This document shows, piece after piece, positions 9,547-36,246 of a stretch of 64,000 bases of DNA. How positions within the stretch are numbered: the first letter of the stretch is position 1; every line of letters starts with the position of its first letter. The translations under genes and the position numbers were made by a program. Below the pieces are notes generated by a model that had not been told where the DNA came from, did no database searches, and saw nothing but the letters and a program-made list of their open reading frames with translations. Source of the DNA: an uncultured Pseudomonadales bacterium. GTDB lineage: Bacteria > Pseudomonadota > Alphaproteobacteria > UBA2136 > UBA6156. Location of the stretch: assembly GCA_964601735.1 (NCBI GenBank), contig CAZROO010000004.1, positions 10,289 to 74,288 of the forward strand, given 5' to 3'.

Positions 9547-10632
9547 ATGAAACCGCGCGTCCTCCATGTGGCCGAAACCCTGCCGGGCGGCGTCGCCACA
9601 ATCATGCGCCTGCTTATGCTCGACCAAACCCGCCGCTACGGCGCCACCCGCGTTATGGCTCTGATTCCCCAGCGCTACAGCCATTTTCTGCTGGTTAACG
9701 ATAGCCAGAAACACACCTATTTCCGCAGCGGGCGCAACTTTCTGGCGCTGCTGCAACTGGGCTGGGAACTGGCCGTGCTGGTGTGGCGCACCCGGCCCGA
9801 TGTTGTTCATTTACATAGTACTTTTGCGGGTGCTATCGGCCGCCCGGTGCTTTTCGCCCTGCGGCCCTGGCGCAGGGCAAAGGTGGTTTACTGCCCCCAC
9901 GCCTTTTCGTTTCTGATGGACGAGTCTCCCTTCAAAAAAAGCCTATTCGCCTTTGCCGAATACCTTCTGGCGGCCGTTACTCACGCTATCATCTGCGTCA
10001 GCCATGACGAGAAAAGAATGGCCGAGCACTTAGGCCTGTCGCCGCATAACCTCAAGGTCATCCAGAATGGTATCGAGGTTTCCAGCCGCAAGGCCAAAAA
10101 CCCCTTTACGCTGCCCCAAGGCGTTTTGAATGTGCTGTTTGTAGGCCGGTTCGATTACCAGAAGGGCTTTGACCTGCTACAAAAGGTCATGGCTAAGCTG
10201 CAGGGCCAATCCGTTCACCTCACTGCCGTCGGTGCGCCGGTGCTGGGGTATAAATACCCAGAAAAAGCGCCCAATATCACCTATACTGGTTGGCTGGAGC
10301 CACAGTATGTCGAAGCATTGATGGGAGAGGCCGACGTATTGGCCATGCCCTCCCGCTACGAAGGTTTTGGTTTGGTTTTGGTTGAAGCGATGAGCCAGGG
10401 CATGCCTGCACTGGCCAGCGACATTGGCCCGCTGCGTGAGGTAGGGCAGGAGAGCGCTATTTTCCTTAAGCCCGAAAATACCAATGCCTGGGTCAAAGCC
10501 CTGCAAACTACGTCGCCGGCCGCCTGGCGTAAGCTCGGCAAGGCGGGCAAGGAAATCTACCAGCGCCAATTTACGGCCGCCCGCATGTGCCGCGAAACCG
10601 CCGCGCTCTACACTAAACTCCTGCAAAAATGA
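9547..10632 (+). CDS. glycosyltransferase family 4 (GT-B, retaining)
   Basis: EGFGLVLVEAMSQGMPALASDIGP matches the GT4 EX7E-type motif. Confidence 0.75.
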   Translation: MKPRVLHVAETLPGGVATIMRLLMLDQTRRYGATRVMALIPQRYSHFLLVNDSQKHTYFRSGRNFLALLQLGWELAVLVWRTRPDVVHLHSTFAGAIGRPVLFALRPWRRAKVVYCPHAFSFLMDESPFKKSLFAFAEYLLAAVTHAIICVSHDEKRMAEHLGLSPHNLKVIQNGIEVSSRKAKNPFTLPQGVLNVLFVGRFDYQKGFDLLQKVMAKLQGQSVHLTAVGAPVLGYKYPEKAPNITYTGWLEPQYVEALMGEADVLAMPSRYEGFGLVLVEAMSQGMPALASDIGPLREVGQESAIFLKPENTNAWVKALQTTSPAAWRKLGKAGKEIYQRQFTAARMCRETAALYTKLLQK

Positions 10633-21425: not shown

Positions 21426-22331
21426 CTAGTCGCCGATGGCTTCGGCCAAGTCCTGCTTTTGCAGCCTTTTCACCTCGTCGCGGCTCATCACGGGTTCGGG
21501 ATTTTCCGAGGCCCGCAGAATGTAGTGGCTATGGCGGTCTGGTGACCGGCGGTAGCCGCCCGTGGTGTTGTCGCCGATGCCTTGGGCCCGCCACCTGGCC
21601 AGCCGTTCGGCCGTTTCGGCCTTTGGCTGGAGCGTGGGTTTGTCGGCCCAAGCCTTGGCTACACGATGTTCCCACGGGGCAACCGCGGGTTTCGCTTGCC
21701 CCAGAAGGATGACCTCCGGTAGCGGCGGCCTTGGCTTTGCGGGCCGTTGCCAACGCACCAACGCCTTGGGCTGCCAGAGAACCGGCAGGAACACCTTGCG
21801 GGGTTCGTCCGGCGGCGCTTTGGTAGCGGGTGGCGTGGCGTCAGTTTCCTGCCGTCCGTCCAACTGCTGCTTCAGCGCTTCCAGCCCTTCGAGGCCTTTT
21901 TGCCATTTGCCCGGTTTCGGTTTTTCGGGCTCCGGCGGCCGGGCCTTCTGCGACGCATGCCAGGCATGCGTCGGCGGAAGGGTGCCGTTGGCCAGATCGG
22001 CGATGTCTTGCTTCTCAAGCAGTTTGAGTAGCTCGTTCATCCCCCAGGCCATGCCTTCGAGGCGGCCTTTTGTGCGCTCCTGCCGGGCCAGCGTCTCCAC
22101 GGTTGTGGCGACGTCGCCGGGGTCGGTATCGTTCAACACCTTTTGGGCGTTGGCGACACGGGCCTCGAAGGCGGCCTTTTTGGGCTTGCCGGGTTTGCCG
22201 GTTTTGGTCGGCTTGCCGAGATTTTCTGGGGCGTCGTGGTTGCCTTCGAGAATCTCATTGGCCGCTTTTCTGCCGGTTTGGGCTTGGTCGAGCTTGGCCA
22301 GCAGGTCTTTCAGGGTATCGTCACCTGTCAT
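21426..22331 (-). CDS. hypothetical Lys/Pro-rich, largely disordered protein
   Basis: RBS GGAGAAAACCCACC before ATG 22331. AT-rich promoter-like region upstream. No recognisable domain. Confidence 0.5.
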   Translation of the reverse strand: MTGDDTLKDLLAKLDQAQTGRKAANEILEGNHDAPENLGKPTKTGKPGKPKKAAFEARVANAQKVLNDTDPGDVATTVETLARQERTKGRLEGMAWGMNELLKLLEKQDIADLANGTLPPTHAWHASQKARPPEPEKPKPGKWQKGLEGLEALKQQLDGRQETDATPPATKAPPDEPRKVFLPVLWQPKALVRWQRPAKPRPPLPEVILLGQAKPAVAPWEHRVAKAWADKPTLQPKAETAERLARWRAQGIGDNTTGGYRRSPDRHSHYILRASENPEPVMSRDEVKRLQKQDLAEAIGD

Positions 22332-22456
22332 GGTGGGTTTTCTCCAAAAAGGACGTTTCAAGATTATTCAAATGTAGGTGTTATATGTATACAATACAAT
22401 ATGCGGGATGGTAAAAAACGCCCTACCCCCCTCGCCCGGCCCGGCTTTAAGAAGGG

Positions 22457-24361
22457 CTAGGATTCCAGAAGTTTCTGGCGCCACCAGACGATGAAGCAGG
22501 CGGCCAGCATGGTGTAGGCGCCGTCGACCTCGCCCTTGAGGGTGGCCTGGAACCAGCGTTTGGTGTTCTCGTTATCGAGCCAGTCGGCCTGGCGGCTGCG
22601 CAGGGTGTCGATGACCAGCCCCCTGCCCTCGCCCAGCAGCCACTGGCGCACCGGGGCGCCAAAACCGGCCTTTTTGCGCCATAATACGCTGGCTGGCAGG
22701 CGATGTTTGACCGCCTGCTTGAACATCCATTTAAGGTGCAGGCCATTCAGCTTGGTGGTAGGCGGCACGTCGGCCATGAAATTGACCAGTCGGCGGTCGG
22801 TGAGCGGCACGCGCACCTCGACGCCGTGGGCCATGGCGGCCTTGTCGCCGTAATTGAGGTTGTGATCGGGCAGGAAACCCGCAAGCTCCATATGTAGCAG
22901 GCGGTTGACGGGGTCTTGGCCGAGGCTTTCGGTTTGGGCTTCGTCGAGTGCGTTGCCCCAGCCGCCTGCGAGCTGGCGGCGCCAGTCGACGTTGAGCAGT
23001 TGCCACGCCGCCGGGTGGCTGTTGGTGCGGAAGGCGTTGCGGAGGAATTTCTCTTCGTCGAGCGCGAGCAGGCCCGCCAGTTGCCCGGCGCGGCGGCCCA
23101 TGCCGCCGAGTTTCATTTTTTGGAGCAGCGGCGCGGCGGTTTTGAGCAGATTGGCCGCCAGCGGCGCGTTTTTGCCCGCGTACTGGCGCAGCCGCGCGCT
23201 GAGGTGGCGTCGGTAGCCGGTGAAGATGTCGTCGCCGCCGGTGCCGGACATGAGCACCTTGATGCCGTCGGCCCTCGCCTGCTTGGCGATGTCTTCGACA
23301 AACAGCGGCGCGGGGTCGGCGGTGGGTTCGTCGAGCAGCGCGGCCAGGCCCGGCAGGCGGCCGAGCACGCCTTTGCTTTCCACCATCATCGGCTTGATGG
23401 GCACGCCCAGGCCTTCGGCCACCTTTTTGGCGTAGAAGAGGTCGTCGCTGAACCCTTCCTTTTTCATGCCGCCGTCATTAAAACCGATACAATAGGTTTG
23501 CGCGGGCTTGTGGCCGGTGGCCACCATGCTGGCCACCACCGCGCTGCTGTCGACCCCGCCGGAAAGGAAGGCGCCCAGCGGTACATCGGCGATGCACTGT
23601 TCGTTCACGACGCTATCGAGCAGGTGCAGCAGTTGCTCGGGCGTGCGATCGGGATGATAGAAAGGCACGCCGTTTTCGAGCGTGGGCAGCAGGTGGCTGT
23701 ACCATTTTTTGATGTCGATGCTGACGCCGCCATTGGTGTGGCGCAGCACCATGTAATGGCCGGGCCTGAGCTTTTTGATGCCCTTGAGCGGCGTGCGCTC
23801 GCCGGGGCTCCACAGCAGCGTGAGATAATCGGCCAGCGCGGCGGGGTCGGGCGTGGTATCGACGCCCGGCACCTTGAGCAGCGCCTTCAGCTCGCTGGCG
23901 AAGGCCACGCCCTGCGGGGTTTGGGCGTAATAGAGCGGCTTGATGCCGGCGTGGTCGCGGGCAATGAATAGCTCGTTTTTTTGCGTATCGAAAATGGCGA
24001 AGGCGAACATGCCCTCCAGCCGGTAGAGCATGCCTGGGCCGAGCATGTCGTAGAGGGGCGCGAGCACGGCGGTGTCGGAATTCGGGTTATAGGAATAGCC
24101 GCGGGCGTTGAGGTCGGCGTGCAGGGTTTTATAATTGTAGATTTCGCCATTGAACACGACCTGGTAGCGCTCGCCTACCGCGCTCATCGGCTGCGCGGCG
24201 GCGGGGCTGAGGTCGATGATGCTGAGGCGCTGGTGAACCAGCGTGACGCCTGGTGCGCTCCAGACGCCGTTGCCGTCCGGCCCGCGATGGGCCTGCGCGG
24301 CAGCCATTGGCCCCGCCAGCGCCGGGTTGAAGTTACCGAATAAGCCTGCAATGCCGCACAT
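22457..24361 (-). CDS. asnB: asparagine synthetase (glutamine-hydrolysing)
   Basis: N-terminal MCGIAG (Ntn Cys2). Synthetase-domain SGGVDSS PP-loop. Confidence 0.9.
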   Translation of the reverse strand: MCGIAGLFGNFNPALAGPMAAAQAHRGPDGNGVWSAPGVTLVHQRLSIIDLSPAAAQPMSAVGERYQVVFNGEIYNYKTLHADLNARGYSYNPNSDTAVLAPLYDMLGPGMLYRLEGMFAFAIFDTQKNELFIARDHAGIKPLYYAQTPQGVAFASELKALLKVPGVDTTPDPAALADYLTLLWSPGERTPLKGIKKLRPGHYMVLRHTNGGVSIDIKKWYSHLLPTLENGVPFYHPDRTPEQLLHLLDSVVNEQCIADVPLGAFLSGGVDSSAVVASMVATGHKPAQTYCIGFNDGGMKKEGFSDDLFYAKKVAEGLGVPIKPMMVESKGVLGRLPGLAALLDEPTADPAPLFVEDIAKQARADGIKVLMSGTGGDDIFTGYRRHLSARLRQYAGKNAPLAANLLKTAAPLLQKMKLGGMGRRAGQLAGLLALDEEKFLRNAFRTNSHPAAWQLLNVDWRRQLAGGWGNALDEAQTESLGQDPVNRLLHMELAGFLPDHNLNYGDKAAMAHGVEVRVPLTDRRLVNFMADVPPTTKLNGLHLKWMFKQAVKHRLPASVLWRKKAGFGAPVRQWLLGEGRGLVIDTLRSRQADWLDNENTKRWFQATLKGEVDGAYTMLAACFIVWWRQKLLES

Positions 24362-24561
24362 AGGTAACGATTAGTACGCAGGACGGCGCCAATAGTAAAG
24401 TCAAACAGTGGTAAAGAGGTTGTAAACGCCACGTAAGCTTAGTTGCGTTTAACTTACCTGATGGCCTTTTGATATTGCTCCCTGCGGCAGGCAGTCTACC
24501 ATGAGGCTGTGGGAGGGCGCCGGTGTCTGAAGGCTCTCGCCCCGACAGAGGAGGAAAAGAC

Positions 24562-24900
24562 ATGAAAACGAAAAAAACTCTGCTTGGCATCGCCGCCGTG
24601 GCCGGACTGGCTGCTGCGGGGATGGCCCTGCCGACTGCCGCCAGTGCGCAGGAGTGGCACGGTGGACGGGACTGGCATGATGGCGGTCACCGCTGGCATG
24701 ACGGGGGTGGTTATCGCCACGGCCCGCGCGGTTACTGGCATCATGGCCGTTACGGTTACTGGCGCGACGGCATGTGGGTAAACCTGGGTTATCCGGGCTA
24801 TTATGGGGCTCCGGTGGCCTACTACCAGCCGCAACCGGTGGCCTATTACCCGGCGCCGTATTATGGCCCGGCGTTGGGGCTGTCATTCCATATTCATTAG
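24562..24900 (+). CDS. small secreted His/Trp/Gly/Tyr-rich protein
   Basis: RBS GAGGAGGAAAAG. Signal peptide MKTKKTLLGIAAVAGLAAAGMALPTAASA. Repeats of WHDGG followed by a YYxP-rich tail. Confidence 0.55.
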   Translation: MKTKKTLLGIAAVAGLAAAGMALPTAASAQEWHGGRDWHDGGHRWHDGGGYRHGPRGYWHHGRYGYWRDGMWVNLGYPGYYGAPVAYYQPQPVAYYPAPYYGPALGLSFHIH

Positions 24901-24911
24901 GAACGTATAGA

Positions 24912-24950
24912 CCGGTGCCTGAGCTTGTGCCCGGGCGCCGTTTTTTTGAC
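24912..24950 (+). terminator. hairpin plus T7 terminator
   Basis: GC hairpin followed by TTTTTTT. Confidence 0.5.
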
Positions 24951-25004
24951 GCTGGATTTTTATACCGGAACGGATAACCTGTTTTAACCAAAGGAGAAGC
25001 AAAA

Positions 25005-25409
25005 ATGAAAACACCCCTGATAGCTCTTACCGCCTTGCTGGCTGCCACCGCCGGTACGGCCCTGGCCCAGACCCGCTGGCAAGGCCACGACTGGGACCCG
25101 CCCGCGAGCCAGCAATGGCATCACGATAACGGTCGTCATTCCGGCTGGGAGCGCCGTGAGGAACGCCGCCGCATGGTGTACGCGCCGCGCCGTGGGGCGA
25201 CTGTGCGCGAGTACGTATATTACCCCAATGCGCGTGCCTACTACGCGCCGTGGAATAAACGCTGGTACTACCGTCGTGGCAGCCGCTGGGTGGTGGCCGA
25301 ACGCGCGCCGGTGAGCATCAACCTGGGTAACGGGCTTAGCATCAGCCTGGGTGCCGACAGCCCGGTGGTATACGACAGCTACGTGGTGAAGCACTACCGC
25401 GAGTACTAA
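25005..25409 (+). CDS. small secreted protein with Tyr/Arg-rich C-terminal module
   Basis: Signal peptide MKTPLIALTALLAATAGTALA. C-terminal motif YVYYPNARAYY..KRWYYRRGSRW shared with the 25941-26525 protein. Confidence 0.55.
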   Translation: MKTPLIALTALLAATAGTALAQTRWQGHDWDPPASQQWHHDNGRHSGWERREERRRMVYAPRRGATVREYVYYPNARAYYAPWNKRWYYRRGSRWVVAERAPVSINLGNGLSISLGADSPVVYDSYVVKHYREY

Positions 25410-25417
25410 ACCACCGC

Positions 25418-25448
25418 GTTTTCACGGCCCCCAAGCGGGGCCGTTTTT
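25418..25448 (+). terminator. rho-independent terminator
   Basis: CACGGCCCC-CAAG-CGGGGCCG followed by TTTTTTA. Confidence 0.6.
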
Positions 25449-25581
25449 TATACGTAAATATCTGGAGTAAAAACATAAAAATGGCCTGCCGACCGTGTTG
25501 GCGCAGGCTGCCAGCAACCCTGTTGGAGACTAGACTGCGCCACCAATAAATAACCACTAATAAATAAGGGAGGATTATGTG

Positions 25582-25944
25582 ATGAAGAAGGACTTCCAGA
25601 AAACCACCGCCCTGTTCATGGCTACCGTGGGGTTGATGGCGAGCATTGCCGCGGCCCAGAGTTCGGGCGGCGGCTTTTCCGGCGACATGAACACCGGCAC
25701 AGGCACCGATGCCGGCGGCAACCCGGCGGGTGAATCGGCCGGTGGCAGCCTGAATGGCAACGCCCGCGTGAACACCGGCTACAACACCAGCAACGGCCGT
25801 AGCAGCACAGGCCCAGGTGGCGCGGGTGTCCGTGCCAACACCGCCAACAACCGGCATGTGAGCGAGAGCTGGATGAAGCATCGCTCCCATATGGGAACGA
25901 CGAGCATCACCAGCGCCAGTACAGGTAAGGGAGAAACAAAATGA
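25582..25944 (+). CDS. small secreted Gly/Ser/Asn/Thr-rich low-complexity protein
   Basis: RBS GGGAGG lies 8 nt before ATG. Signal peptide. Stop overlaps the next start (ATGA). Confidence 0.5.
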   Translation: MKKDFQKTTALFMATVGLMASIAAAQSSGGGFSGDMNTGTGTDAGGNPAGESAGGSLNGNARVNTGYNTSNGRSSTGPGGAGVRANTANNRHVSESWMKHRSHMGTTSITSASTGKGETK

Positions 25945-26525
25945 AAAGCACCTTTACGCTGGTGGCCCTGGTGATGGCCGGTGAAGCGATGCCGGTGGTT
26001 GGTTGGACGCAGGTGTTGACCACCGGCGGCACGGCGGGCAGCAGCATTAACGACGGCGCCAACATCGGCGCAGGCAACCATACCGGGGCGAGCGTCAATT
26101 TCAGTAACCCCGAGGCTGATCAGATTCGCACCCGGCTGGGCGGCAGCGGCCAAGCTGTGGCCAAACAAAACACGATAGGGCAGCTAAGACAGGCCGGAAC
26201 CGTCAGCACCAATAACGTGACCACCACGCCCGCGATGACGGGCGCGACGGGGAGCGTTCATGGCAACACCGCCGGGGCGGTGCGGGCCACCCGGGAAGTT
26301 CGGGGGGCGGCGACAGTGGCGGATATTCTGCCGCGCGGCAGCGCCAGCTATACTTATTACCCCGAGGCGCAGGTCTATTTTTCGTCCACTACCAAGAAGA
26401 CCTATTACTACAGCCGCAAGGGTCGCTGGTATTCCAGCACCAGCCTGCCCACGGGGGTAAAGCTCACCAACGGCCGCAGCGTACAGCTTAACGGCAATGG
26501 GGCGGCGAGCGTGATGACGCCGTAA
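25941..26525 (+). CDS. small secreted protein: low-complexity N-region plus Tyr-rich C-terminal module, paralogous to 25005-25409
   Basis: Signal peptide. C-terminal YTYYPEAQVYF..KKTYYYSRKGRWY aligns with the protein at 25005-25409. Confidence 0.55.
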   Translation: MKSTFTLVALVMAGEAMPVVGWTQVLTTGGTAGSSINDGANIGAGNHTGASVNFSNPEADQIRTRLGGSGQAVAKQNTIGQLRQAGTVSTNNVTTTPAMTGATGSVHGNTAGAVRATREVRGAATVADILPRGSASYTYYPEAQVYFSSTTKKTYYYSRKGRWYSSTSLPTGVKLTNGRSVQLNGNGAASVMTP

Positions 26526-26591
26526 GAGTGTGCGCCTTGTGTACGGTTAGCGCTTGACGGCCAGAAACTCTGCCCGTAAAACCCCTGCGCT

Positions 26592-26666
26592 TCCGGCGTA
26601 GCTCAGCGGTAGAGCAACGGACTGTTAATCCGTGGGTCGTTGGTTCGATCCCAACCGCCGGAGCCA
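26592..26666 (+). tRNA. tRNA-Asn (anticodon GTT)
   Basis: TCCGGCGTAGCTCAGCGGTAGAGC ... anticodon loop CTGTTAA ... GGTTCGATCCCAACC GCCGGAGCCA. Confidence 0.85.
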
Positions 26667-26667
26667 G

Positions 26668-26700
26668 ATTTAAAGCCCATCCAAGGATGGGCTTTTTTAT
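26668..26700 (+). terminator. rho-independent terminator after tRNA-Asn
   Basis: AAAGCCCATCC-AAG-GATGGGCTTT followed by TTTAT. Confidence 0.7.
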
Positions 26701-26746
26701 ACTTTTTGATAAATTTTTAAATGAGGCAGGCAAAGAGAATACAGAA

Positions 26747-26839
26747 GGTTGGGATTGAACCAACGACCCACGGGTTGCGCCGAAGGCGCACTGTTTATGG
26801 AGAGGGCAGTCCGTTGCTCTACCGCTGAGCTACGCCGGA
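26747..26839 (-). pseudogene. tRNA-Asn-derived pseudo-tRNA (inverted partial duplicate with altered anticodon loop, no 3' acceptor strand)
   Basis: Minus strand repeats ~20 nt of upstream leader plus tRNA-Asn positions 1-33. A 32-nt insert then replaces TTAAT in the anticodon loop. The T-arm follows (1 mismatch) but the acceptor 3' strand and CCA are absent. Confidence 0.55.
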
Positions 26840-26948
26840 AGCGGTGGGGTTTTACGGGCAGGCGCGGGCGCCGTTAAGCAGAATACAATATGGCGCCCAG
26901 CATGGCGGCAGACTTGACGTTTTGCACCGCTTGGCCGAGGCTGAAGCC

Positions 26949-27593
26949 ATGCAAGAACAAGCCCGGCACAACATGGTGGATGGCCAACTCCGGCCTAATC
27001 AGGTCAACAACCATGCCCTGCTGGGCCGCCTGAGCAGTGTGGCGCGGGAGGATTTTGTTCCCGTGAGTTACCGCCAGACTGCTTATGCCGATACGGTGAC
27101 GCCGCTTTCGGCCACCCGCAGCCTGCCCGCGCCTATGACCCTGGCGCGGTTGCTTCAGGCGCTGGAACTGAAGGAAAACGACAACGTGCTGATTGTGGCG
27201 GGCAACAGCGGGTACAGTGCCGCGCTGGTGGCGCCGCTGGTGGCCGGTGTGACCCTGATTGAAGATGATCAGGCCTTGCTTAGCCAGGCGGGCAGGCATC
27301 TTTCTGGCTTTGCCAACGTGAGCGTGCATAACGCCGCGCCAACCGCCGGTTACCCGCAAACGGCGCCGTACAGCGTGATTCTGCTGGATGCCGCCGCTGC
27401 GCACCTTCCGCAAACGCTAACCTCGCAACTGGCCGAGGGGGGCCGCCTTGGCGCCGTGACGCTGGGCGGCAACGGATTGTGGGTGGCCAGTATTGTCACC
27501 AAGCATGGCGGAACGCTGTTTACTGAAGAACTGTTCGAGGCCAAACCGGCGTTGCACCCGGCGTTGATGGCCGAGCAGGGCTTTGTATTTTAA
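26949..27593 (+). CDS. pcm: protein-L-isoaspartate O-methyltransferase-like
   Basis: MVDGQLRPNQV..L..VARE.FVP is a PCMT-family N-terminus. Start chosen at internal Met 26949. Confidence 0.7.
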   Translation: MQEQARHNMVDGQLRPNQVNNHALLGRLSSVAREDFVPVSYRQTAYADTVTPLSATRSLPAPMTLARLLQALELKENDNVLIVAGNSGYSAALVAPLVAGVTLIEDDQALLSQAGRHLSGFANVSVHNAAPTAGYPQTAPYSVILLDAAAAHLPQTLTSQLAEGGRLGAVTLGGNGLWVASIVTKHGGTLFTEELFEAKPALHPALMAEQGFVF

Positions 27594-27787: not shown

Positions 27788-29665
27788 TCAATAGGCGGAG
27801 CCTGCCCCTGCCGTCAACCTCAATTCCTGCTCCACCAGATCGGCATCGCGGCGGAACAGTTCATTATGCAGGTTTTGAATTTGCGACAGGCGGGCCTTGA
27901 GCAGGTTCGGTTCCGCCGGGCCGGTAATGAGGCTGTTATATAAATAGGTAGCGGCCTTTTCGCGGTCCGGTTCCAGTAAGGTAAGGCGCTGCCAGCTGTA
28001 GGGATCGGCAGGTTGAATTTGTACGGCGGCGAACAGATTTTGCCTGGCGGCGGCCAACAAAACGGGGTTGCCGTGGGCCAGCAGCATATCCAGCAGGCCT
28101 ATCTCGCGGCGCCATTCGGCGTAATTCCACCAGCACAGGGCTTGGTTGAAATCGTTTTGCGCCTGCCGGAGGTTGGTTTGCGGCACCGGTTCCCCCGCCC
28201 TGGCCTGCGCCAGTACATGCTCGCCGCGCCAGACGTAGAGGGAGGGTATCGTTATCATCAGGGCCATGACCGTAAGCACGATGCCTGAGATGACAGATAC
28301 TTGATTGGTGACGGGTGATTCGCGCTGGTTGCGCGGCAGGCTTTGCACCGCGCACAGGCCCAGCAGCACCGAGAGGAAAAAGGCGACCGCTGGAATGTTG
28401 GGGCTGAAATCGACCCATGCGTGTGTGCTTGCGAGTAGCAATGCGCTTAAGCCTACCGCTGGATAAACCACGCCGTTACGCCGCACTTTCAATCCACGGA
28501 TAAAGATGCCCGCCAGCCCCACGCCAAGTGCCACCAGCAGCATGGTGGCGGGCCAGCCCATCTCCACCGCAAACTCCAGCCAACTGTTGTGGGCGTGGTC
28601 GACGCGGGCGTTTTCCGCCAACGGCAATTGCGGCGTGCGGTACAGGCGGAAGGCGGGCTCGAAACTGCCGAGGCCGGAGCCGGTCAGCGGCAGGGCTTGG
28701 GTTATTTTCCAGGTTATGGCGTAAATCGCCTGCCGCTCTCTTACCCCGGCATCGCCCTGCCCCAGGCGCTCAAGTGTTTCCTGCCCCGCGGTGTTCATGA
28801 CCACGACACCGAAGCCCAGTAGCAACGGCAAGGCGGCGAGCAGAAATATCCGTGCGCCGCGCGCGGCAAAAACCAGCGCCAGATAAAAAGCCGTGAGGCC
28901 CAACCCGCACGCCAGCAGGCCGCCGCGCGAATGGCTGAGCAGCAGTGTGACGAAAATGATGAACGCGAACCCGAACCACCAGCGTCCGGGCCTGAGCACC
29001 AGCACCTGAAGTGCCTTGACGCGTTGCCAGCCCAGGGCGCGTTTGCCGCCGGGGATTTCGCCGATGCGCAAAAGGCCTGCGCCCAGGCAGGCCAGCGTGC
29101 CCAGCCCGGCGAAGGTAGCGTAGCTGTTACGGTTGATGAAGGTGGCGGTGAGATCGTTCAGGTAGAATTTTTTAGCCTGCCAGAATACCGCTTGCGTGCC
29201 GGTGAGATGCATCAACAAGCCGTTGAGTGCGATAAACAGTGCGGCGAGCGCTAGGCCTTTGAAGAGTTGACGGGCGGCGGTGCTGCTGCCGCCGGTTTTC
29301 CACGCCAGCAAAAACCCGGTGGCGTAGAGCCCGCCGTTGAGTAACGCGAGCAGCCCGTTTTGGGGTGTGAGGCTAATGGTGTGTGTGGTGCTTTGCAGCG
29401 GGTGCATCAGCCTGGCGAGTTGCGGCGGCAGGGGCAGAATTTGCACTGTGCCCCACAGCATCAATAGTACCCACCCCGCCAACAGCCAGCGCGGCAAATG
29501 CGGCCCGTGGGGGTTGGAGAGCATCAGCAGCGCACCGCAAACCGACGCCATTGCGCCGCTGAACAGCGGATTATTGGCACCGAAAAACGCTGCCCCCGCC
29601 AGAGTCACGAGCGGCAGAACTACAACCGACACGCTTCGCTTAACAGGCTGAAAAATAAACGCCAT
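27788..29665 (-). CDS. O-antigen ligase/polymerase-family (Wzy_C) membrane protein with C-terminal TPR-like domain
   Basis: ~10 TM helices with a Wzy_C-type central loop region, then a soluble helical C-terminal third. Confidence 0.7.
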   Translation of the reverse strand: MAFIFQPVKRSVSVVVLPLVTLAGAAFFGANNPLFSGAMASVCGALLMLSNPHGPHLPRWLLAGWVLLMLWGTVQILPLPPQLARLMHPLQSTTHTISLTPQNGLLALLNGGLYATGFLLAWKTGGSSTAARQLFKGLALAALFIALNGLLMHLTGTQAVFWQAKKFYLNDLTATFINRNSYATFAGLGTLACLGAGLLRIGEIPGGKRALGWQRVKALQVLVLRPGRWWFGFAFIIFVTLLLSHSRGGLLACGLGLTAFYLALVFAARGARIFLLAALPLLLGFGVVVMNTAGQETLERLGQGDAGVRERQAIYAITWKITQALPLTGSGLGSFEPAFRLYRTPQLPLAENARVDHAHNSWLEFAVEMGWPATMLLVALGVGLAGIFIRGLKVRRNGVVYPAVGLSALLLASTHAWVDFSPNIPAVAFFLSVLLGLCAVQSLPRNQRESPVTNQVSVISGIVLTVMALMITIPSLYVWRGEHVLAQARAGEPVPQTNLRQAQNDFNQALCWWNYAEWRREIGLLDMLLAHGNPVLLAAARQNLFAAVQIQPADPYSWQRLTLLEPDREKAATYLYNSLITGPAEPNLLKARLSQIQNLHNELFRRDADLVEQELRLTAGAGSAY

Positions 29666-29720
29666 TCTGTCCTTTACATTGTTTTATTGCCGCCATATAC
29701 CACCTGTCGTTGTCTGACAA

Positions 29721-30071
29721 ATGGCAAAAATATGGGGACTCTTGATTCTTCTTGGCTTGAGCATGGGTGCTTTTGCCGCGCCTGTAGCAGACCCGCTGGC
29801 CCATATTGCTGCACTCAAAGCCCAGAGCCACGTTCTGGCCCGGCAGGCGCTGGAGGATATTCTGCGTGAGCTGGCGCGGCATCCATCCCCGGAAAACGAT
29901 AAGCTGGTGACGGAACTGCTTGAGCAAAACCCCGACCTGGTAGCCGAGATTGCCGATGCTATTGAACCCGCCGCAGGCCCCTCCCCGGCGCCGGAATTTG
30001 GAAGTGGTGAGGCTACTGCTTTTGATATTCCGCTTGAAAACCCCAACCAGATTAGCGCCAACCAGCCGTAG
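29721..30071 (+). CDS. small secreted acidic hypothetical protein
   Basis: Signal peptide MAKIWGLLILLGLSMGAFAAP. First gene of the export locus. Confidence 0.45.
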   Translation: MAKIWGLLILLGLSMGAFAAPVADPLAHIAALKAQSHVLARQALEDILRELARHPSPENDKLVTELLEQNPDLVAEIADAIEPAAGPSPAPEFGSGEATAFDIPLENPNQISANQP

Positions 30072-30075
30072 CTTT

Positions 30076-31299
30076 ATGAAGCGCTTGTTTTTTGCCAGCC
30101 TGATTTTTGCCATGCCGGTTTGGGCCGATGGCGGCAGCGCGGTTGTTCCTGTGGGCAGCCGGATGTTGGGTGACGATGGACGTGCCGGGGTAAGGATGCG
30201 GCGTTTTCTGGTGGTTCCGCAGATTGATTTTGCACAAGCTTACAACAGCAATATTTACGCGATGCGCGCGCACCGTAAGAGCGATTACGTCAGCACCGCG
30301 CGCCCGCAGGTGACGGCACAGAGCAACTGGAGCCGGCACGCGCTGAATGTGTTGCTGAAGGGTGAGTTCAACCGCTTTGCGGTGCATGATAAGGAAAACA
30401 CCGACAACTATACTGCCGCTGTTGACGGGCGGCTGGATGTTTTGCGTCAGACCGCACTGGGTGGCGGCTTAAGCTGGGTTCGTGCGCATGAAGACCGGGG
30501 GGACCCGAATAGCCCGGCGACGGCCCTGCACCCGACACAATACGACACCACCACCGGCAAGCTAGGTCTGTGGCGCAACCTGGGAAGGTTCAATGCACGG
30601 GTGGACGGGGAGATTAAGAATCTCGACTACAAAAACGACCTGACCAGAGGTGGCCTGCTGGTAAACAACAACCTGCGCGACCGTACCGATTACGCGCAGG
30701 CTTTGCGGCTGGGATATCAGGCTTATCCGGGTTATGAAATTTATACCGCGGGCACTTTGGACAACCGGGTTTATGACATCAAAGCGCCGCTCAACCGTAA
30801 CAGCCGGGGCGACAGCGTGGTGGCGGGAGTGAGCCATGATCTTTCCGGCAAGACCAAGGCAGATGCCTTTGCCGGTTACACCCACCGCAACTATGGGGTG
30901 GGGCTGCGCGACATTATAACGCCGGTTTACGGGATGGGCCTGACCTGGAATGTGACCGATGCCAGCAGTGTGATTGCGCGCATCAGCCGCAGTATTGAGG
31001 AAACGACGCTGGCCGGCAGCACGGCTTATGTGCTTTCGGATTACGGACTTGATTACCAACACGCCTTTACCCGCCGGTTGCTGGGCACGCTGGGTGCCGA
31101 GCTTGCCAGCTACCAGTATAAAGGTTTTGGCCCGCAGCGGCGTGACGATTTGGATATTGGGCGCCTGGGATTGAGATATTCGCTGAACCGGTTGTTCAGC
31201 TTGGGCGCCGATTACACCTTTACCACCCGCGACAGCAATGCGGCGGGCGGGGATTATGTTCAACACGTGGCGATGCTGCGCCTGACGGGAAGGTTCTGA
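30076..31299 (+). CDS. outer-membrane beta-barrel protein of exopolysaccharide export locus
   Basis: Signal peptide MKRLFFASLIFAMPVWA. Alternating beta-strand pattern. C-terminal Phe (LTGRF). Confidence 0.6.
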   Translation: MKRLFFASLIFAMPVWADGGSAVVPVGSRMLGDDGRAGVRMRRFLVVPQIDFAQAYNSNIYAMRAHRKSDYVSTARPQVTAQSNWSRHALNVLLKGEFNRFAVHDKENTDNYTAAVDGRLDVLRQTALGGGLSWVRAHEDRGDPNSPATALHPTQYDTTTGKLGLWRNLGRFNARVDGEIKNLDYKNDLTRGGLLVNNNLRDRTDYAQALRLGYQAYPGYEIYTAGTLDNRVYDIKAPLNRNSRGDSVVAGVSHDLSGKTKADAFAGYTHRNYGVGLRDIITPVYGMGLTWNVTDASSVIARISRSIEETTLAGSTAYVLSDYGLDYQHAFTRRLLGTLGAELASYQYKGFGPQRRDDLDIGRLGLRYSLNRLFSLGADYTFTTRDSNAAGGDYVQHVAMLRLTGRF

Positions 31300-31301
31300 C
31301 G

Positions 31302-31910
31302 ATGAAGAAGATTCTATTTCTCTTTTTTACCATGATGGTTGCCACCGTTTTTGCGCAGGGTGCGCCGGACTTTTCGCAAGGCTTCACCAATCTGGGGAAT
31401 AATGCCCAGCCTGCCGTTGTGACGCCGCCCGCTGCCGTCAAGCCTGATACCGGCGCCTACACGCTGGGTGGCGGCGACAAGGTGCGGATGACCGTTTTTG
31501 GCGAAGAGGATTTGACCGGCGAATACGATGTGGACGGCACCGGCACACTGGCGCTGCCGCTGATTGGCAACGTGAACGTGAAAGGCAAAACGCTGCGGCA
31601 GGCCGAGGGCCTAATCACCGCACAGTATGCGCATGGCTACCTGGTGAACCCGCGCGTGAGTCTGGAAGTGTTGAACTTCCGGCCCTTTTTTATTTTGGGT
31701 GAGGTAAGCAGGCCGGGCAGTTACCCGTATGTGAACGATATGACCGTCATTAATGCCGTGGCGCTGGCGGGTGGATACACGCCCCGGGCTTCGACCGGTA
31801 CGGTTTACCTGCGTCGTGCCGCCGACCCGCAGCACGGCGAAGTGGAAGTGGATGAGGCCGTCAAGGTGGGGCCGGGTGACGTTATCCGCGTTGACGAGAG
31901 GTTCTTTTAA
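31302..31910 (+). CDS. polysaccharide export protein (Wza/GumB/ExoF family, Poly_export plus SLBB)
   Basis: Signal peptide. Motifs YTLGGGDKVRMTVFGEEDLTG and PLIGNVNVKGKTLRQAEGLI. Confidence 0.8.
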   Translation: MKKILFLFFTMMVATVFAQGAPDFSQGFTNLGNNAQPAVVTPPAAVKPDTGAYTLGGGDKVRMTVFGEEDLTGEYDVDGTGTLALPLIGNVNVKGKTLRQAEGLITAQYAHGYLVNPRVSLEVLNFRPFFILGEVSRPGSYPYVNDMTVINAVALAGGYTPRASTGTVYLRRAADPQHGEVEVDEAVKVGPGDVIRVDERFF

Positions 31911-34073
31911 ATGAGTTTGCTTCGGCTTTTTGTGCGTGAGCAGCTTGAGGGTGTGGAGTGGTTTTTGAACCCGACACTGGCTATGTTGCGGCGTCGCTCG
32001 GCATTGATTTTTGCAGCGACAGGGTTATGCCTTGCCGTTACCGCCGGGTTGCTGTTGTTGACGCCCAGCAAATATACGGCGCAGGCGCTACTGCAAATCA
32101 ACACGCGCCATGAGCAGGTCACCAATGTGTCGGAAGTGCTTTCGAGCTTATCGTCGTCGGACCCGGCGGTGCGCACCGAAATGGATGTTTTACGCTCACG
32201 CCGGTTGGCCGCTGCGGTGATACGCAGACTGAACCTGATGCAGACCGACCCTTCCCTTAACCGCGACTCGTTTGGCGTGATGCTGCGGCATGGCCTGGCG
32301 TATTTTTTATTCCCCGGCAGCAATGAAGAAGTGGGCGGTATGCAGGCACGGCTGACGCGCGCTACCGATAATTTTATGGACAATCTTGGCGTGCGGATGC
32401 TGCCCCATTCGTTTTCGATTGTGGTGGACTACACTGCGCGCGACCCGCAACTGGCGGCGCAGGTGGCCAATGCGGTGGCGCTGGAATACCTGAACAGCCA
32501 GCTTGAAGACCGCTTTGAGGCCACCCGCCGCGCCAGCGGCTGGATTGCCGAACGCCTGAAGCAACTGCGCAACGAAGTGTACGATGCCGAGTTGGCGACG
32601 CAGAAGTTCCGCGAGTCGCACAACCTGACGCAGGCCAAAGGGATGACGCTGACCGAGCAGCAGCTTTCGGAACTCAACTCGCAACTGATTTTGGCCCGCA
32701 CCCAGTTGGCCGAGGCCGAAGCCAAGCTGAGCCAGGCGCAAAGCGGTGGCGGTATTGAAACGAGTAGTGAAGTTCTGAACTCGCCACTCATCCAAAACCT
32801 GCGTGAGCAGGAAACCGAAGTGCGCCGCAAGATGAGCGACCTGGCCTCGCGCTACGGCGCCAAGCACCCGCGCATGCAGACGGTGAAAAACGAACTGGCC
32901 GACGTGCAACGCAAGATACATGAGGAGACGGTGAAGATTCAAGGCAGCCTAGGTAACGACGTTGCCGTGGCCAAGGCGCGCGTGGCGACGCTGGAAAATC
33001 AGCTGGAGGTGTTGCAGCAGAAGACCAGCCTTTCCACCACCGCCGAAGTGCAGTTGGCCGAGCTGGAGCGTCAGGCGCAAGCCGCGCGCAGCCTGTATGA
33101 AAATTTCCTCTCCCGCAGCAAGGAACTGGCACAGATGGATTTATCGCAGGCCGATGCGCGGATGATTTACCCGGCGGAAGCGCCTCTGTACCCCAGCCAG
33201 CCGCAACCGTGGTTATGGCTGCCGCTCGCCGCCATGTTTGGCCTGACGCTGGGTGTTGCGCTGGCACTCCTGCTGGATGCGCTCGACAGCGGCTTCCGCA
33301 CCCTTGAGCAAATGGAAAATATGACCGGTGCCCCTGCCCTGGCTTTGCTGGCTGAATTGCCGGCGAGCGAAGGTAGCTTGTTCAATTACGCGCAGCGCAA
33401 ACCGAGTTCGGCTTTTGCGGAGTCGATTCGTGCGGCCCGCGCCGCGTTGCGGTTTGCCAACCCGGATAAGCCGCCGCAGGTGATTCTGGTGACCAGCAGC
33501 GTGCCAGGCGAAGGCAAAAGCCTGTTCAGCACCAGCCTGGCCCACCTTGCCGCGCTGGGCGGGCAGAAGGTGCTATTGCTGGAAACCGATCTGCGCCGTC
33601 CGACCCTGGCGCAACAATTTGTATTGAAGCCGCGGCATGGATTGGCTGAAGTGCTGGGCGGGGAAGCGGCGCTGAGTGATGCGCTGCATCAACCGCAGGG
33701 TACAAAGCTGACGGTATTGCCCGCTACCGCCTCAAATCCGTTTGCACCGGAATTATTGGCCAGCGGCAAGATGAAAAAGCTGCTGGGTGAGCTGCGCAAG
33801 AAGTTCGATCTTATTATTCTGGACAGTCCGCCGGTGACGGCCGTGGCCGACGCCACGCTGCTGGCGGCACTGGCCGACAGCGTGTTGTTTGTGGTGCGTT
33901 GGGGCACCACGCCACGCACGGTAACAATGAAGGCGCTTGCCGCTCTGAAGGCGGCCCGTGCGCCGTTGGCGGGTTGCTTGCTGAGCCGGGTCGATTTTTC
34001 CAAACAGAAAACTTACGGATACGGCAGTGACGCCTACACCTACAATCAGGCCCAGGCCTATTATACCGACTGA
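31911..34073 (+). CDS. polysaccharide co-polymerase fused to tyrosine autokinase (Wzc/ExoP-like BY-kinase)
   Basis: Two TM segments flank a coiled-coil periplasmic domain. C-terminal P-loop SSVPGEGKS and Walker B DSPPV. Tyr-rich tail (YGYGSDAYTY). Confidence 0.8.
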   Translation: MSLLRLFVREQLEGVEWFLNPTLAMLRRRSALIFAATGLCLAVTAGLLLLTPSKYTAQALLQINTRHEQVTNVSEVLSSLSSSDPAVRTEMDVLRSRRLAAAVIRRLNLMQTDPSLNRDSFGVMLRHGLAYFLFPGSNEEVGGMQARLTRATDNFMDNLGVRMLPHSFSIVVDYTARDPQLAAQVANAVALEYLNSQLEDRFEATRRASGWIAERLKQLRNEVYDAELATQKFRESHNLTQAKGMTLTEQQLSELNSQLILARTQLAEAEAKLSQAQSGGGIETSSEVLNSPLIQNLREQETEVRRKMSDLASRYGAKHPRMQTVKNELADVQRKIHEETVKIQGSLGNDVAVAKARVATLENQLEVLQQKTSLSTTAEVQLAELERQAQAARSLYENFLSRSKELAQMDLSQADARMIYPAEAPLYPSQPQPWLWLPLAAMFGLTLGVALALLLDALDSGFRTLEQMENMTGAPALALLAELPASEGSLFNYAQRKPSSAFAESIRAARAALRFANPDKPPQVILVTSSVPGEGKSLFSTSLAHLAALGGQKVLLLETDLRRPTLAQQFVLKPRHGLAEVLGGEAALSDALHQPQGTKLTVLPATASNPFAPELLASGKMKKLLGELRKKFDLIILDSPPVTAVADATLLAALADSVLFVVRWGTTPRTVTMKALAALKAARAPLAGCLLSRVDFSKQKTYGYGSDAYTYNQAQAYYTD

Positions 34074-34849
34074 TGCTCAGCCGCCTACGCCACGCCTTGC
34101 TGACCCCCGTCATGCCGCGCTGGGAGCGGGGCGAGCTTGCGCCGGGACAGCGCGTTTATGCCATTGGCGATATTCATGGCCGTGCTGATTTATTGGTGCA
34201 ATTATTGGAAAGAATCGAGGCCGATGCCAGTAACTTTGCAGGCGATGTGACGCTGGTGGTTATAGGCGACGTGATTGACCACGGGCCTCAATCGGCCGAG
34301 GTGGTGGATTTATTACAAGGGCAAATACCGACACGCTGGCAAAGCATTTTTTTGCGCGGCAACCACGAGTGGATGATGCAGCGGTTTGTCGTATCGCCGG
34401 AGGAATGGGCCCAGTGGCTGGGTTGGGGCGGCGAGGCCACGCTGGCCAGTTACGGTATAAAAGCCCGGCAGGATAATTATCGTTTACGCCCCTTGGGTGC
34501 GATTGCCGCCGAGCTTGAGCATGCGCTCGAGGTGCGTGGTCATAAACCGTTTTATCAGAATCAGCAGAACTACTGGCGCCACCAGGGATACGCTTTTGTG
34601 CATGCGGGTGTGCGTGGGGGGCTGGAATGGGAAGAGCAACTGGAAAGCGATTTGCTGATGCAGTACCGCGCCGATTTTACCGGCCATCATGATTTGCCGG
34701 AGCGGATTGTTTTTGGCCACACCATTTATGATGAGCCTCTGGTGAGCGGGCATTTTATCGGCATTGATACCGGCGCGCGGAGCAGCGGCGTTTTGACCGC
34801 CGCGGTGCTCGAAGAAAAACGGTTATCCTTTTTTCAGACGCGACCATGA
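34073..34849 (+). CDS. PPP-family metallophosphatase (PrpA/ApaH-like Ser/Thr-Tyr phosphatase)
   Basis: GDIHGR, GDVIDHG and GNHE motifs. ATGA overlaps with both neighbours. Confidence 0.75.
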   Translation: MLSRLRHALLTPVMPRWERGELAPGQRVYAIGDIHGRADLLVQLLERIEADASNFAGDVTLVVIGDVIDHGPQSAEVVDLLQGQIPTRWQSIFLRGNHEWMMQRFVVSPEEWAQWLGWGGEATLASYGIKARQDNYRLRPLGAIAAELEHALEVRGHKPFYQNQQNYWRHQGYAFVHAGVRGGLEWEEQLESDLLMQYRADFTGHHDLPERIVFGHTIYDEPLVSGHFIGIDTGARSSGVLTAAVLEEKRLSFFQTRP

Positions 34850-36246
34850 ATCCTTCGGCTCCTGCCCTTTCTCCACTGAGCGGCATTGCCACTCTGGGTG
34901 TTGCGCTAAGGGTTGCCGATGGGGTTATGGTGGTGGCGCTTTCGTACCTTGCCTACGTGCTGCGTCATGGAGCCTGGCAAATGCCTGCGCCATATGTGGG
35001 CATGACTTTGCTGGGGCTTTTTTTATACGTTGGCAGCGCCGGGTTTGCCGGGCTTTACCAGCCCGCCATTCTGGAACGCGGACTTCTGGGGTTGCCGCGG
35101 CTGGCCATGGTATTGGGTGTGAGCCTGCTGGGCGTGGTGGCGGTGTTGTTCATGCTCAAGGTGTCTGACCAGTTTTCGCGCCTGTGGATGCTGGGTTGGG
35201 GCTTGGGGGTTTTTGCGGGCCTGTTTGCGTTACGGCTTTGGGCAGCGTGGTTTATAGACCGCCAATTAGACCGGGGCCGCTGGCAACGGCGCGTGGCGTT
35301 GCTGGGTGCCGGGCCTCGTGCCGAGCAACTGGTGCGGCACTTAGGCCGCCGCCATGCCGATGCCCGGCTGTTTGGGCTTTACGACCTACCCGGTGGGAGC
35401 GGCAAAACCCGCAAGCGTTTTTTCAAGGGCGACATTGACCGCCTGGTGGCGGATGGCAAGCGTGGCTGGTTTGACGACCTGATTATTGCCATACCGCTGG
35501 ACAGCATTGCCGGCAGCGAGGCGTTGCTGGACAAGCTGCACCAGATTCCGACCAACGTTTTTTATTGCCTGCCCTTGCCGCTGGCCGGCCGCATGAACCG
35601 TCAGGCACATCAGTTGGCGGGCCTGCCGCTGGCGCTGGTGTACCGGCAGCCGCTGCAGCCTCATTTGCTGGCGCTGAAGCGCGGGGTTGATATTGTGCTG
35701 GCGGCTTTGGCGCTGACGGCGGCAAGCCCGTTTATGCTGCTGACCGCGCTGGCGGTTGCCCTTACCAGCCGGGGGCCGGTGCTGTTCAGACAACGGCGCG
35801 GTGGCTTTAACGGCGGCGAGTTTGTGATGCTCAAGTTCCGCAGCATGCGGGCGGGCAGTCACGTCAATCGCCAGGCCAGGCGCAACGACGCGCGGTTGAC
35901 GCCCGTGGGTCGGTTTATCCGCCGTACCAGCCTGGACGAACTGCCGCAACTTATCAACGTGCTGAAAGGCGACATGAGCCTGGTGGGACCCCGCCCACAT
36001 GTGCCGAGCCATAACCGGCAGTATGCCAAGTCGATTGCCCGCTATGCCGGGCGCCACAAAATACGCCCCGGCATGACCGGTTGGGCGCAGGTGCAAGGCT
36101 GGCGCGGCGAAACCGAGACGCTCGACAAGATGCGGAAACGCGTTGAGCTGGACAGTTGGTACATTGAAAACTGGAGTTTTGGACTGGACGTAAAGATTCT
36201 GCTGCTGACGCCGCTGGTGGTACTGTTCCAGCGCAATGCACATTAA
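34846..36246 (+). CDS. undecaprenyl-phosphate hexose-1-phosphate transferase (WcaJ/ExoY-type priming glycosyltransferase)
   Basis: 4-5 N-terminal TM helices. C-terminal bacterial sugar transferase domain (GPRPHVPSHNRQY ... PGMTGWAQV). Confidence 0.85.
   Translation: MNPSAPALSPLSGIATLGVALRVADGVMVVALSYLAYVLRHGAWQMPAPYVGMTLLGLFLYVGSAGFAGLYQPAILERGLLGLPRLAMVLGVSLLGVVAVLFMLKVSDQFSRLWMLGWGLGVFAGLFALRLWAAWFIDRQLDRGRWQRRVALLGAGPRAEQLVRHLGRRHADARLFGLYDLPGGSGKTRKRFFKGDIDRLVADGKRGWFDDLIIAIPLDSIAGSEALLDKLHQIPTNVFYCLPLPLAGRMNRQAHQLAGLPLALVYRQPLQPHLLALKRGVDIVLAALALTAASPFMLLTALAVALTSRGPVLFRQRRGGFNGGEFVMLKFRSMRAGSHVNRQARRNDARLTPVGRFIRRTSLDELPQLINVLKGDMSLVGPRPHVPSHNRQYAKSIARYAGRHKIRPGMTGWAQVQGWRGETETLDKMRKRVELDSWYIENWSFGLDVKILLLTPLVVLFQRNAH

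Follow-up and report, generated by a model that had tools for sequence, protein, structure and literature searches.

Two of four small, putatively exported proteins encoded at one alphaproteobacterial locus share a domain of an unnamed, uncharacterised family

The question raised by the locus described here is whether four short consecutive genes of the plus strand encode one family of exported proteins or a mixed set of products. The genes, called P1 to P4 in their order, are found in a stretch of 64,000 nucleotides (nt) from an uncultured Pseudomonadales bacterium (GTDB lineage Alphaproteobacteria; UBA2136; UBA6156), which corresponds to positions 10,289 to 74,288 of contig CAZROO010000004.1 and is referred to below as the window. 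An earlier note, made from the DNA letters alone, had described the products as a paralogous set in which a Tyr/Arg-rich C-terminal module is common to all four proteins. The analysis has revealed instead that only P2 and P4 carry this module, which is a genuine domain of about 70 residues, and that P1 and P3 show no homology to P2, to P4 or to each other beyond the signal peptide. Because no homology is detectable for P1 and P3, the description as four paralogues sharing a module is an overstatement; judged by sequence comparison, the real grouping consists of one domain-sharing pair and two unrelated low-complexity proteins.

The relationship between P2 and P4 was established in two ways. 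BLASTP with composition-adjusted statistics gave 35% identity over 51 amino acids (aa), with E=2e-9. Besides, a hidden Markov model (HMM) was built from 104 domain sequences, leaving out the P2 and P4 lineages as a guard against circularity and tyrosine bias. This independent HMM scores P2 with 63.6 bits and P4 with 62.2 bits, whereas the top score among 800 shuffles of the four sequences is 6.8 bits, so that the C-terminal similarity proposed in the earlier note has passed a test of significance. P1 and P3 in their native form score no better than the shuffles, and in a six-frame translation of the whole window the only copies of the module are those of P2 and P4.

The two copies are set in different surroundings. 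In P2 the signal peptide (aa 1-21) is followed by a W/H/R-rich stretch (aa 22-56) containing the conserved motif W.GHDWDPPA..QW, and then by the long form of the module, in which an AP..G lead-in, Y.YYP...YY.P....WYY..G.W, L.I.L and a C-terminal helix succeed each other. In P4 a long region rich in G, N, T, S and A, which holds the conserved motif QVLTTGGTAGSS.N.GANIGAGNHTGAS, precedes the short form, with the pattern LP.G..SYTYYP...VY......YYY...G.WY....P.GV.L......V.L; here an extra N-terminal strand is present and the C-terminal helix is absent. The lead-in reads YAPRRGA in P2 and takes the shorter form LPRGSAS in P4.

The module also occurs far from this locus. With the family defined as the 'YYP...GxW' module of alignment A5, 1.84 billion cluster representatives were searched exhaustively by HMM, which gave 481 proteins at E<=1e-3, 62 of them at E<=1e-10, each one standing for a protein cluster at 50% identity. 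They are spread over Alpha-, Beta- and Gammaproteobacteria and Desulfonema, and the hosts that can be identified are metagenome-assembled genomes (MAGs) of an alphaproteobacterium, of Nevskia and of a member of the Burkholderiaceae, besides one cultured organism, Desulfonema ishimotonii (DENIS_1820, with four repeats). The module is single in small exported proteins and is repeated two to four times in tandem in proteins of 200-520 aa; among the best 159 of the 481 matches, one copy is present in 90, two in 46, three in 17 and four in 6. Word-indexed searches recovered orthologues only, five for P2 and seven for P4, from metagenomes or a soil alphaproteobacterial MAG, and 13 proteins, none of them named, when the broad module alignment was used. 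The related-locus search with alignment A4 gave three genome loci and one metagenome locus, and none of 72,556 plasmids was matched in tblastn by P1, by P2 or by a consensus-like member.

The core of the family can be written as Y-x-Y-Y-P ... V-Y-Y-x-P ... Y-F-Y ... G-x-W ... L-P ... I-x-L-G ... V-x-I-x-L, to which the long form adds P-Y-x-x-H ... Y-P. Conservation is highest at W33 (100%), Y17 and P40 (99% each) and Y10 (98%), followed by Y8 and P12 (94% each) and Y11 (93%). The core residues Y-x-Y-Y-P, V-Y-[YF], [YW]-[FY]-[YW], G-x-W and L-P are present in P2 and P4, with the exceptions in P2 of Ala for Val before Y17 and Ala for Leu before P40. The short form, which lacks the P-Y-x-x-H…Y-P helix and has a G/S/T/N-rich linker before it, is also found outside this clade, and P4 is of that type. 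As for the complete members, a hydrophobic N-terminus was detected by a heuristic in 144 of 156, a lipobox-like site in 17 of 156, and their median isoelectric point (pI) is 9.5; a lead-in similar to PPWAPAHGYR is seen in 42 of the 159 best-scoring members.

The existing name of family members is always "hypothetical protein". Pfam and NCBIfam searches with P1-P4 and ten diverse module members gave nothing at or above cut-off, no match was obtained in PHROGs, and the module profile, like that of P1, found only chance matches among PDB sequences (for example antibody CDR-H3 and Kv T1), in line with the absence of an obvious named domain in the earlier note. Literature searches, including searches with sequence motifs, found no description of the family. 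By its sequence, the module belongs to a wider domain family that is unnamed and uncharacterised, with several hundred clusters beyond the locus.

Related to the larger members, two four-repeat relatives of the module proteins (P0013 and P0015; L019 6001-7464) carry after the signal peptide a short motif with Cys and His residues, …ICH.G…V…A…HL.HGD..G.C…, which has no Pfam match and may be a separate small domain.

The domain could be modelled with confidence. The AlphaFold2 model of aa 63-134 of P2, made with a 108-sequence alignment, reaches a predicted local distance difference test (pLDDT) value of 91 and a predicted template modelling score of 0.79, with strands at positions 6-11, 16-19, 24-29, 32-36 and 49-53 and a C-terminal helix at 58-69. 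In the AlphaFold2 model of P4, pLDDT is 83-92 for aa 118-189 and below 50 for aa 1-117. The predicted fold is a five-stranded antiparallel sheet, to which a C-terminal helix (P2) or an extra N-terminal strand (P4) is added. Conserved aromatic columns follow an i, i+2, i+3 spacing along strands 1-3 (Y8, Y10 and Y11; Y17 and Y/F18; Y/W25, F/Y26 and Y/W27); V16 is also among the conserved strand columns, and W33 is invariant. Since conserved Tyr, Phe and Trp alternate along these three strands, aromatic residues are to be expected on both faces of the sheet, and as the helix can cover one face only, strand periodicity suggests that one aromatic face is probably exposed. Foldseek searches of the P2 and P4 models against the PDB, and of P2 against BFVD, gave nothing below E=0.8, with query-normalised TM-scores (template modelling scores) of at most 0.53; judged against these two collections, the modelled fold would provisionally be one without known counterpart.

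The two proteins without the module are of a different nature. The mature part of P1 contains 21% Gly, 16% Tyr, 11% His (9 His), 10% Pro and 7% Trp, with neither Cys nor Lys. Its His/Trp repeats and YYxP tail had been recognised in the earlier note, and are seen as three WH(D/G)GG units, a GYW region, a GYWHHGRYGYWRDGMW stretch, PVAYYxP repeats and a YYPAPYY tail. In four orthologues the residues of GGH, WHD and the tail are invariant, including H43 and H46, and the C-terminal LxLSF(H/N)I is conserved. P1 matched nothing in Pfam or NCBIfam, nor did three of its orthologues in Pfam at E<=10; a PDB sequence search with the P1 profile gave chance matches only, and the related-locus search with the P1 alignment found none. 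P3 is also of low complexity (22% Gly, 15% Ser, 13% Thr and 11% Asn in its mature part), and is lineage-specific, being confined to the close relatives of the window and missing from loci L001, L002 and L009. No significant similarity was found by BLASTP between P1 and P2 or between P3 and P4, the P1 and module profiles are unrelated in profile-profile comparison, and in the comparison of P3 with P4 the signal peptide alone aligns. An uncorrected tblastn hint that P3 is akin to the N-terminal half of distant P4 orthologues was gone after composition correction.

All four genes of the lengths listed in the table are genuine. Compared with the orthologues of locus L007 (83-93% protein identity), P1 to P4 show ratios of nonsynonymous to synonymous substitution rates (dN/dS) of 0.075, 0.11, 0.185 and 0.16, respectively, and against the relatives of L001 and L002, at 50-70% identity, the values are 0.13-0.37. 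The constrained frames are those of the plus strand, a conserved Shine-Dalgarno site lies 6-9 nt 5' of each gene, and gene predictors of several sources call identical products. It could be argued that these open reading frames (ORFs) are not genes and that the likeness of P2 and P4 reflects Tyr-rich composition in high-GC DNA, as antisense ORFs overlap the P1-P4 region, both strands are rich in overlapping ORFs, as is to be expected at about 60% GC, and P1 and P3 are of low complexity. However, this explanation, which deserves practically no credence, is refuted by purifying selection (dN/dS 0.08-0.37 over ten comparisons), by the conserved Shine-Dalgarno sites and terminators, by the scores of about 63 bits compared with 6.8 for the best shuffle, and by the pLDDT of 91.

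The export signals were read from the sequence by a hydrophobicity heuristic. Each N-terminus consists of a Lys-containing basic n-region and a hydrophobic stretch of 10-15 residues, and the best 10-aa Kyte-Doolittle window of the h-regions is 2.1-2.6, which agrees with the Sec signal that had been assigned to each protein. An AxA-type cleavage site is present in P1, P2 and P3; that of P4 is atypical in the lineage of the window (…AGEAMPVVGWTQ…), and is canonical in distant orthologues (…SIAAA/QVL, the bar marking the cut). Judged by their signal peptides, the proteins would reside in the periplasm or the envelope. In their mature form they are basic, with pI 8.3 for P1, 10.0 for P2 and P3, and 10.2 for P4, and none of the four contains Cys, which means that they form no disulfides and, lacking a lipobox Cys at +1, are not lipoproteins. 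Two other classes of product have also been discarded. P1-P4 end in ...GLSFHIH, ...KHYREY, ...STGKGETK and ...AASVMTP, and have neither the PEP motif nor the hydrophobic C-terminal helix of PEP-CTERM/exosortase substrates. Precursors of lasso peptides or other ribosomally synthesised and post-translationally modified peptides do not fit proteins of 112-194 aa with Sec-type signals, and the AsnB-like neighbour scores 208 bits where the lasso-cyclase cut-off is 525.

Table. Positions in the window of the four genes, their parts, terminators and the adjoining amidotransferase gene
Feature	Positions	Strand	Details
Asparagine-synthase-type amidotransferase, glutamine-hydrolysing (asnB-like)	22457-24361	-	TIGR01536 401.8 bits, cut-off 267
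P1 gene	24562-24900	+	112 aa, predicted exported; mature part 82 aa
Intrinsic terminator after P1	24913-24947	+	Hairpin then U7; -20.4 kcal/mol, z = -3.8
P2 gene	25005-25409	+	134 aa, predicted exported
P2 module, long form	25173-25406	+	aa 57-134; scored with the independent HMM
Intrinsic terminator after P2	25424-25450	+	8-bp GC-rich stem then U6; -16.7 kcal/mol
P3 gene	25582-25944	+	120 aa, predicted exported
P4 gene	25941-26525	+	194 aa, predicted exported
P4 G/N/T/S/A-rich region	26007-26291	+	aa 23-117, about 95 residues, predicted disordered
P4 module, short form	26292-26507	+	aa 118-189; scored with the independent HMM

The cassette is transcribed as three units, namely P1, P2 and P3-P4. 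Each of the first two genes has its own terminator, as previously noted, and both are conserved in L001: a hairpin equivalent to that of P1 is found there, and the one of P2 is kept in L007, L001 and L002, with changes mostly within the loop. No terminator was found between P4 and the tRNA-Asn gene. The P4 start codon overlaps the P3 stop codon as ATGA, which is in keeping with the coupling described before, though it is specific to the strain of the window: the genes are separated by a 12-nt gap in L007, and L001, L002 and L009 have no P3. A scan for the sigma-70 consensus found none, and Rfam over 24200-27000 gave tRNA matches only.

Two observations were made in the spacers. The one between asnB and P1 (24362-24561) and its equivalents in L001, L002 and L007 contain blocks that are invariant though the proteins are just 50-70% identical (ATTAGTAC, GTAAAC, GTAAG, CTTAC, TATTG and CCTA..ATG); these blocks probably include two promoters and possibly an operator, and the short inverted repeats of this spacer are not consistently conserved. 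Directly 5' of the P3 ribosome-binding site, at 25540-25567, there is a 14-nt tandem direct repeat (CCACCAATAAATAA / CCACTAATAAATAA), of which L007 has one partial copy only.

The surroundings of the cassette are partly conserved. The asnB-like gene adjoins P1 divergently in every related locus, and the order holB, tatD, tatD-like, an unknown gene (minus strand) and asnB-like (minus strand), followed by P1, P2, P3 where present and P4, is common to three lineages. One comprises the window and L003-L008, another L001, L002 and L009, and the third is represented by the contig of P0135, a protein that has 41% identity to P2 in the module. The order of asnB and P1-P2-P4 is in this way maintained in three alphaproteobacterial lineages, down to about 40% module identity. 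The best-scoring model for the asnB-like neighbour is the XrtA/PEP-CTERM amidotransferase (405.6 bits, under the cut-off of 816.9). On the right side, the window has tRNA-Asn, PCMT and tRNA-Cys, and then an exopolysaccharide locus (Wzy_C, EpsL-like, Wza, Wzc, phosphatase, WcaJ), while the other two lineages have a GFO_IDH_MocA/ADH_zinc_N oxidoreductase, a gene of the UDP-glucose/GDP-mannose dehydrogenase family and comEC.

Several features of these flanks were recorded in passing. The slot between the tatD-like gene and the amidotransferase is occupied in all three lineages by a gene without family, encoding 252-397 aa; in the window it is a Pro/Lys/Ala-rich protein of 311 aa (21426-22361, minus strand) with no Pfam or NCBIfam match. 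The exopolysaccharide locus (27788-36246) is of the Wzx/Wzy type and encodes, apart from a Wzy_C-family membrane protein (minus strand), a barrel of the outer membrane (EpsL-like), an exporter (Wza/EpsE-like), a chain-length/tyrosine kinase (Wzc-type), a metallophosphatase and a priming transferase (WcaJ-type), the last of which exceeds the cut-off of TIGR03023; several of its genes match XrtA/XrtB (PEP-CTERM)-associated models below their cut-offs only. The tRNA-Asn(GTT) gene (26592-26666, plus strand) has a defective twin in inverted orientation (minus strand, about 26740-26861). The twin shares 22 nt of 5' flank, is interrupted at the anticodon by 28 inserted nt and diverges at its 3' acceptor end; it scores 36 bits with the Rfam tRNA model and is not called by ARAGORN. 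The twin, together with the single intact tRNA-Asn of L007 on the minus strand, points to an inverted duplication or a replacement in the lineage of the window. This pseudo-copy overlaps the start of the longest possible PCMT ORF (GTG at 26844).

With regard to function, the locus can be described from its sequences as a conserved cassette for small, Sec-exported, Cys-free and basic proteins without enzymatic signature, no catalytic-family match having been obtained in Pfam, NCBIfam, PHROGs or the PDB. We tentatively propose that the module might be an envelope binding or assembly domain presenting its aromatic face to a glycan polymer or to a Pro/Tyr-rich partner. After export, the domain would act as a non-catalytic module whose aromatic face would bind a polymeric envelope ligand, for which a glycan (the exopolysaccharide of the adjacent locus), lipopolysaccharide and peptidoglycan are candidates; alternatively, a partner rich in proline and tyrosine, for instance P1, could be bound. 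Multivalent contacts of low specificity would come from the basic or disordered segments at the flanks (the W/H/R stretch of P2, the G/N/T/S region of P4, P1 and P3). The proposal leans on a likeness to carbohydrate-binding and SH3b-type modules: modules that bind carbohydrates or polyproline II peptides typically display aromatic platforms at their surface and are repeated in tandem. The amidotransferase beside the cassette is of a type found in exopolysaccharide loci. Several points weigh against the proposal. The argument for an exposed aromatic face comes from strand periodicity alone, and Foldseek found no likeness to any carbohydrate-binding module, SH3, WW or OCRE structure. Besides, the genes to the right of the cassette vary from lineage to lineage, and members outside the clade are solitary genes with no recurrent neighbour, between metG and apbC (Nevskia) or near a MacB-type ABC/RND efflux operon, cytochrome genes or MoxR/DUF58 (Desulfonema), so that the polysaccharide link may be incidental; guilt by association would here be at most weak and specific to the clade. 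An extended version, which we hold to be quite improbable, would see in the module a new fold family of exported aromatic-platform domains and in the cassette a self-contained system, where the module grips the PVAYYxP repeats of P1 or the PPWAPAHGYR-type lead-in and builds a multivalent scaffold of the envelope, as a prokaryotic counterpart of OCRE, WW and SH3, by which peptides rich in proline are recognised.

Other functions have to be weighed against that of an aromatic binding module. Handling of metals in the periplasm, where P1 and perhaps the His/Trp-rich N-terminus of P2 would serve as a buffer or carrier for Ni, Co, Cu or Zn by binding them, in the manner of RcnB/YohN or of further periplasmic proteins rich in His, is suggested by the 9 His among the 82 mature residues of P1, with H43, H46, GGH and WHD invariant in four orthologues, by the conserved GHDWDPP..QW of P2 and by the His-rich tails of some members, such as the one from Nevskia, which ends in HHEHRHHHHDDDD. 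Nevertheless, this function appears unlikely: neither RcnB, BA14K nor any metal-binding family matched in Pfam at E<=10, in none of the lineages is the cassette flanked by genes for metal transport, efflux or sensing, and mature P1 starts with Q-E-W-H and has no amino-terminal Cu(II)- and Ni(II)-binding motif. Moreover, among the 159 best members His-rich windows (>=5 His per 12 aa; 8 members) are rarer than K/R-rich windows or tails (31 members), and the sole conserved His of the domain (position 62) is absent from P2 and P4. Metal binding by P1, as suggested in the earlier note, would be a guess from composition. A similarly low probability is given to self-assembling matrix or adhesive proteins, in which the low-complexity P1, P3 and N-terminal half of P4 would drive coacervation or amyloid-like assembly, with the module oligomerising and the product joining the exopolysaccharide in a biofilm matrix. 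The Gly- and Tyr-rich composition of P1 (21% and 16%), the G/S/T/N-rich P3, the predicted disorder of aa 1-117 of P4, the adjacent export and polymerisation locus and the tandem arrays of larger relatives fit such a role; no match to curlin, Fap or another amyloid family was found, however, nor dedicated secretion or nucleator genes nearby, and P3 is missing in two of the three lineages, in which the exopolysaccharide neighbourhood is not conserved either. Still somewhat less plausible is protection of the envelope under stress, which would require small, basic, partly disordered periplasmic proteins to be induced and to act as stabilisers or holdases. The proteins have that general appearance and lack Cys, and the terminators found after P1 and P2 would permit strong independent expression, but no EcfG-type general-stress promoter (GGAAC-N15-18-CGTT) was found 5' of any of the four genes, and there is no similarity to known periplasmic chaperones.

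What has been gained is an alignable domain with a confident model, which covers several hundred clusters that are "hypothetical" or unannotated and is absent from Pfam, NCBIfam and the PDB. The proteins themselves are ordinary-looking exported "hypothetical" proteins; the new part is the domain family, and its value lies mainly in annotation and structure. If the module were a new fold with an envelope polymer or a proline-rich partner as its ligand, a small recognition module would be added to those known for Gram-negative envelopes, and a way would be opened into a conserved cassette that lies next to polysaccharide genes of uncultured Alphaproteobacteria. Should it be another structural domain of unknown function, its value would be limited to better annotation.

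Several known families can be compared with these proteins. RcnB/YohN and BA14K are small Sec-exported proteobacterial proteins with a charged or His-rich N-terminal stretch and a compact C-terminal domain, and both had been named in the earlier note as families to be compared. Neither RcnB/YohN (PF11776) nor BA14K (PF07886) matched P1-P4 even at E<=10, or the ten module members at E<=1; BA14K, besides, relies on conserved cysteines, of which P1-P4 have none. YXWGXW (PF12779) and PXPV (PF12778) are also small exported proteobacterial proteins, with G-Y-W and P-x-P-V or P-V-x-Y-x-P-like repeats, and their likeness to P1 is only compositional, P1 and three orthologues being unmatched in Pfam at E<=10. 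DUF6515 (PF20125), bacterial and of unknown function, gave a weak match below cut-off to the tandem-repeat member P0013 (E=5.5e-4, 20.3 bits with a cut-off of 24.9), the only one of the ten members tested to show it, and it matched none of the window proteins. Carbohydrate-binding modules and SH3b-type domains are beta domains of small size whose aromatic surfaces are conserved; they often occur in tandem, with disordered linkers and in exported hosts, and no sequence or fold match to them was found for the module. The only name that recurs below threshold among the ten diverse members is OCRE (PF17780; RBM5/RBM10), with a sub-threshold Pfam match in four family members, the best in P0015 (E=1.9e-4, 21.8 bits with a cut-off of 24.7). 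In contrast to the module, OCRE is eukaryotic and nuclear; no window protein matches it, the C-terminal helix and LP...L.L strand of the module lie outside the sub-threshold matches, and neither the PDB sequence profile search nor Foldseek returned an OCRE entry or structure. Like the module, on the other hand, OCRE is small, all-beta and Tyr-rich, with YY...G.YY-like strands. It binds proline-rich peptides via exposed tyrosines, and could offer a possible functional analogy for an encounter of the module with the Pro/Tyr-rich P1.

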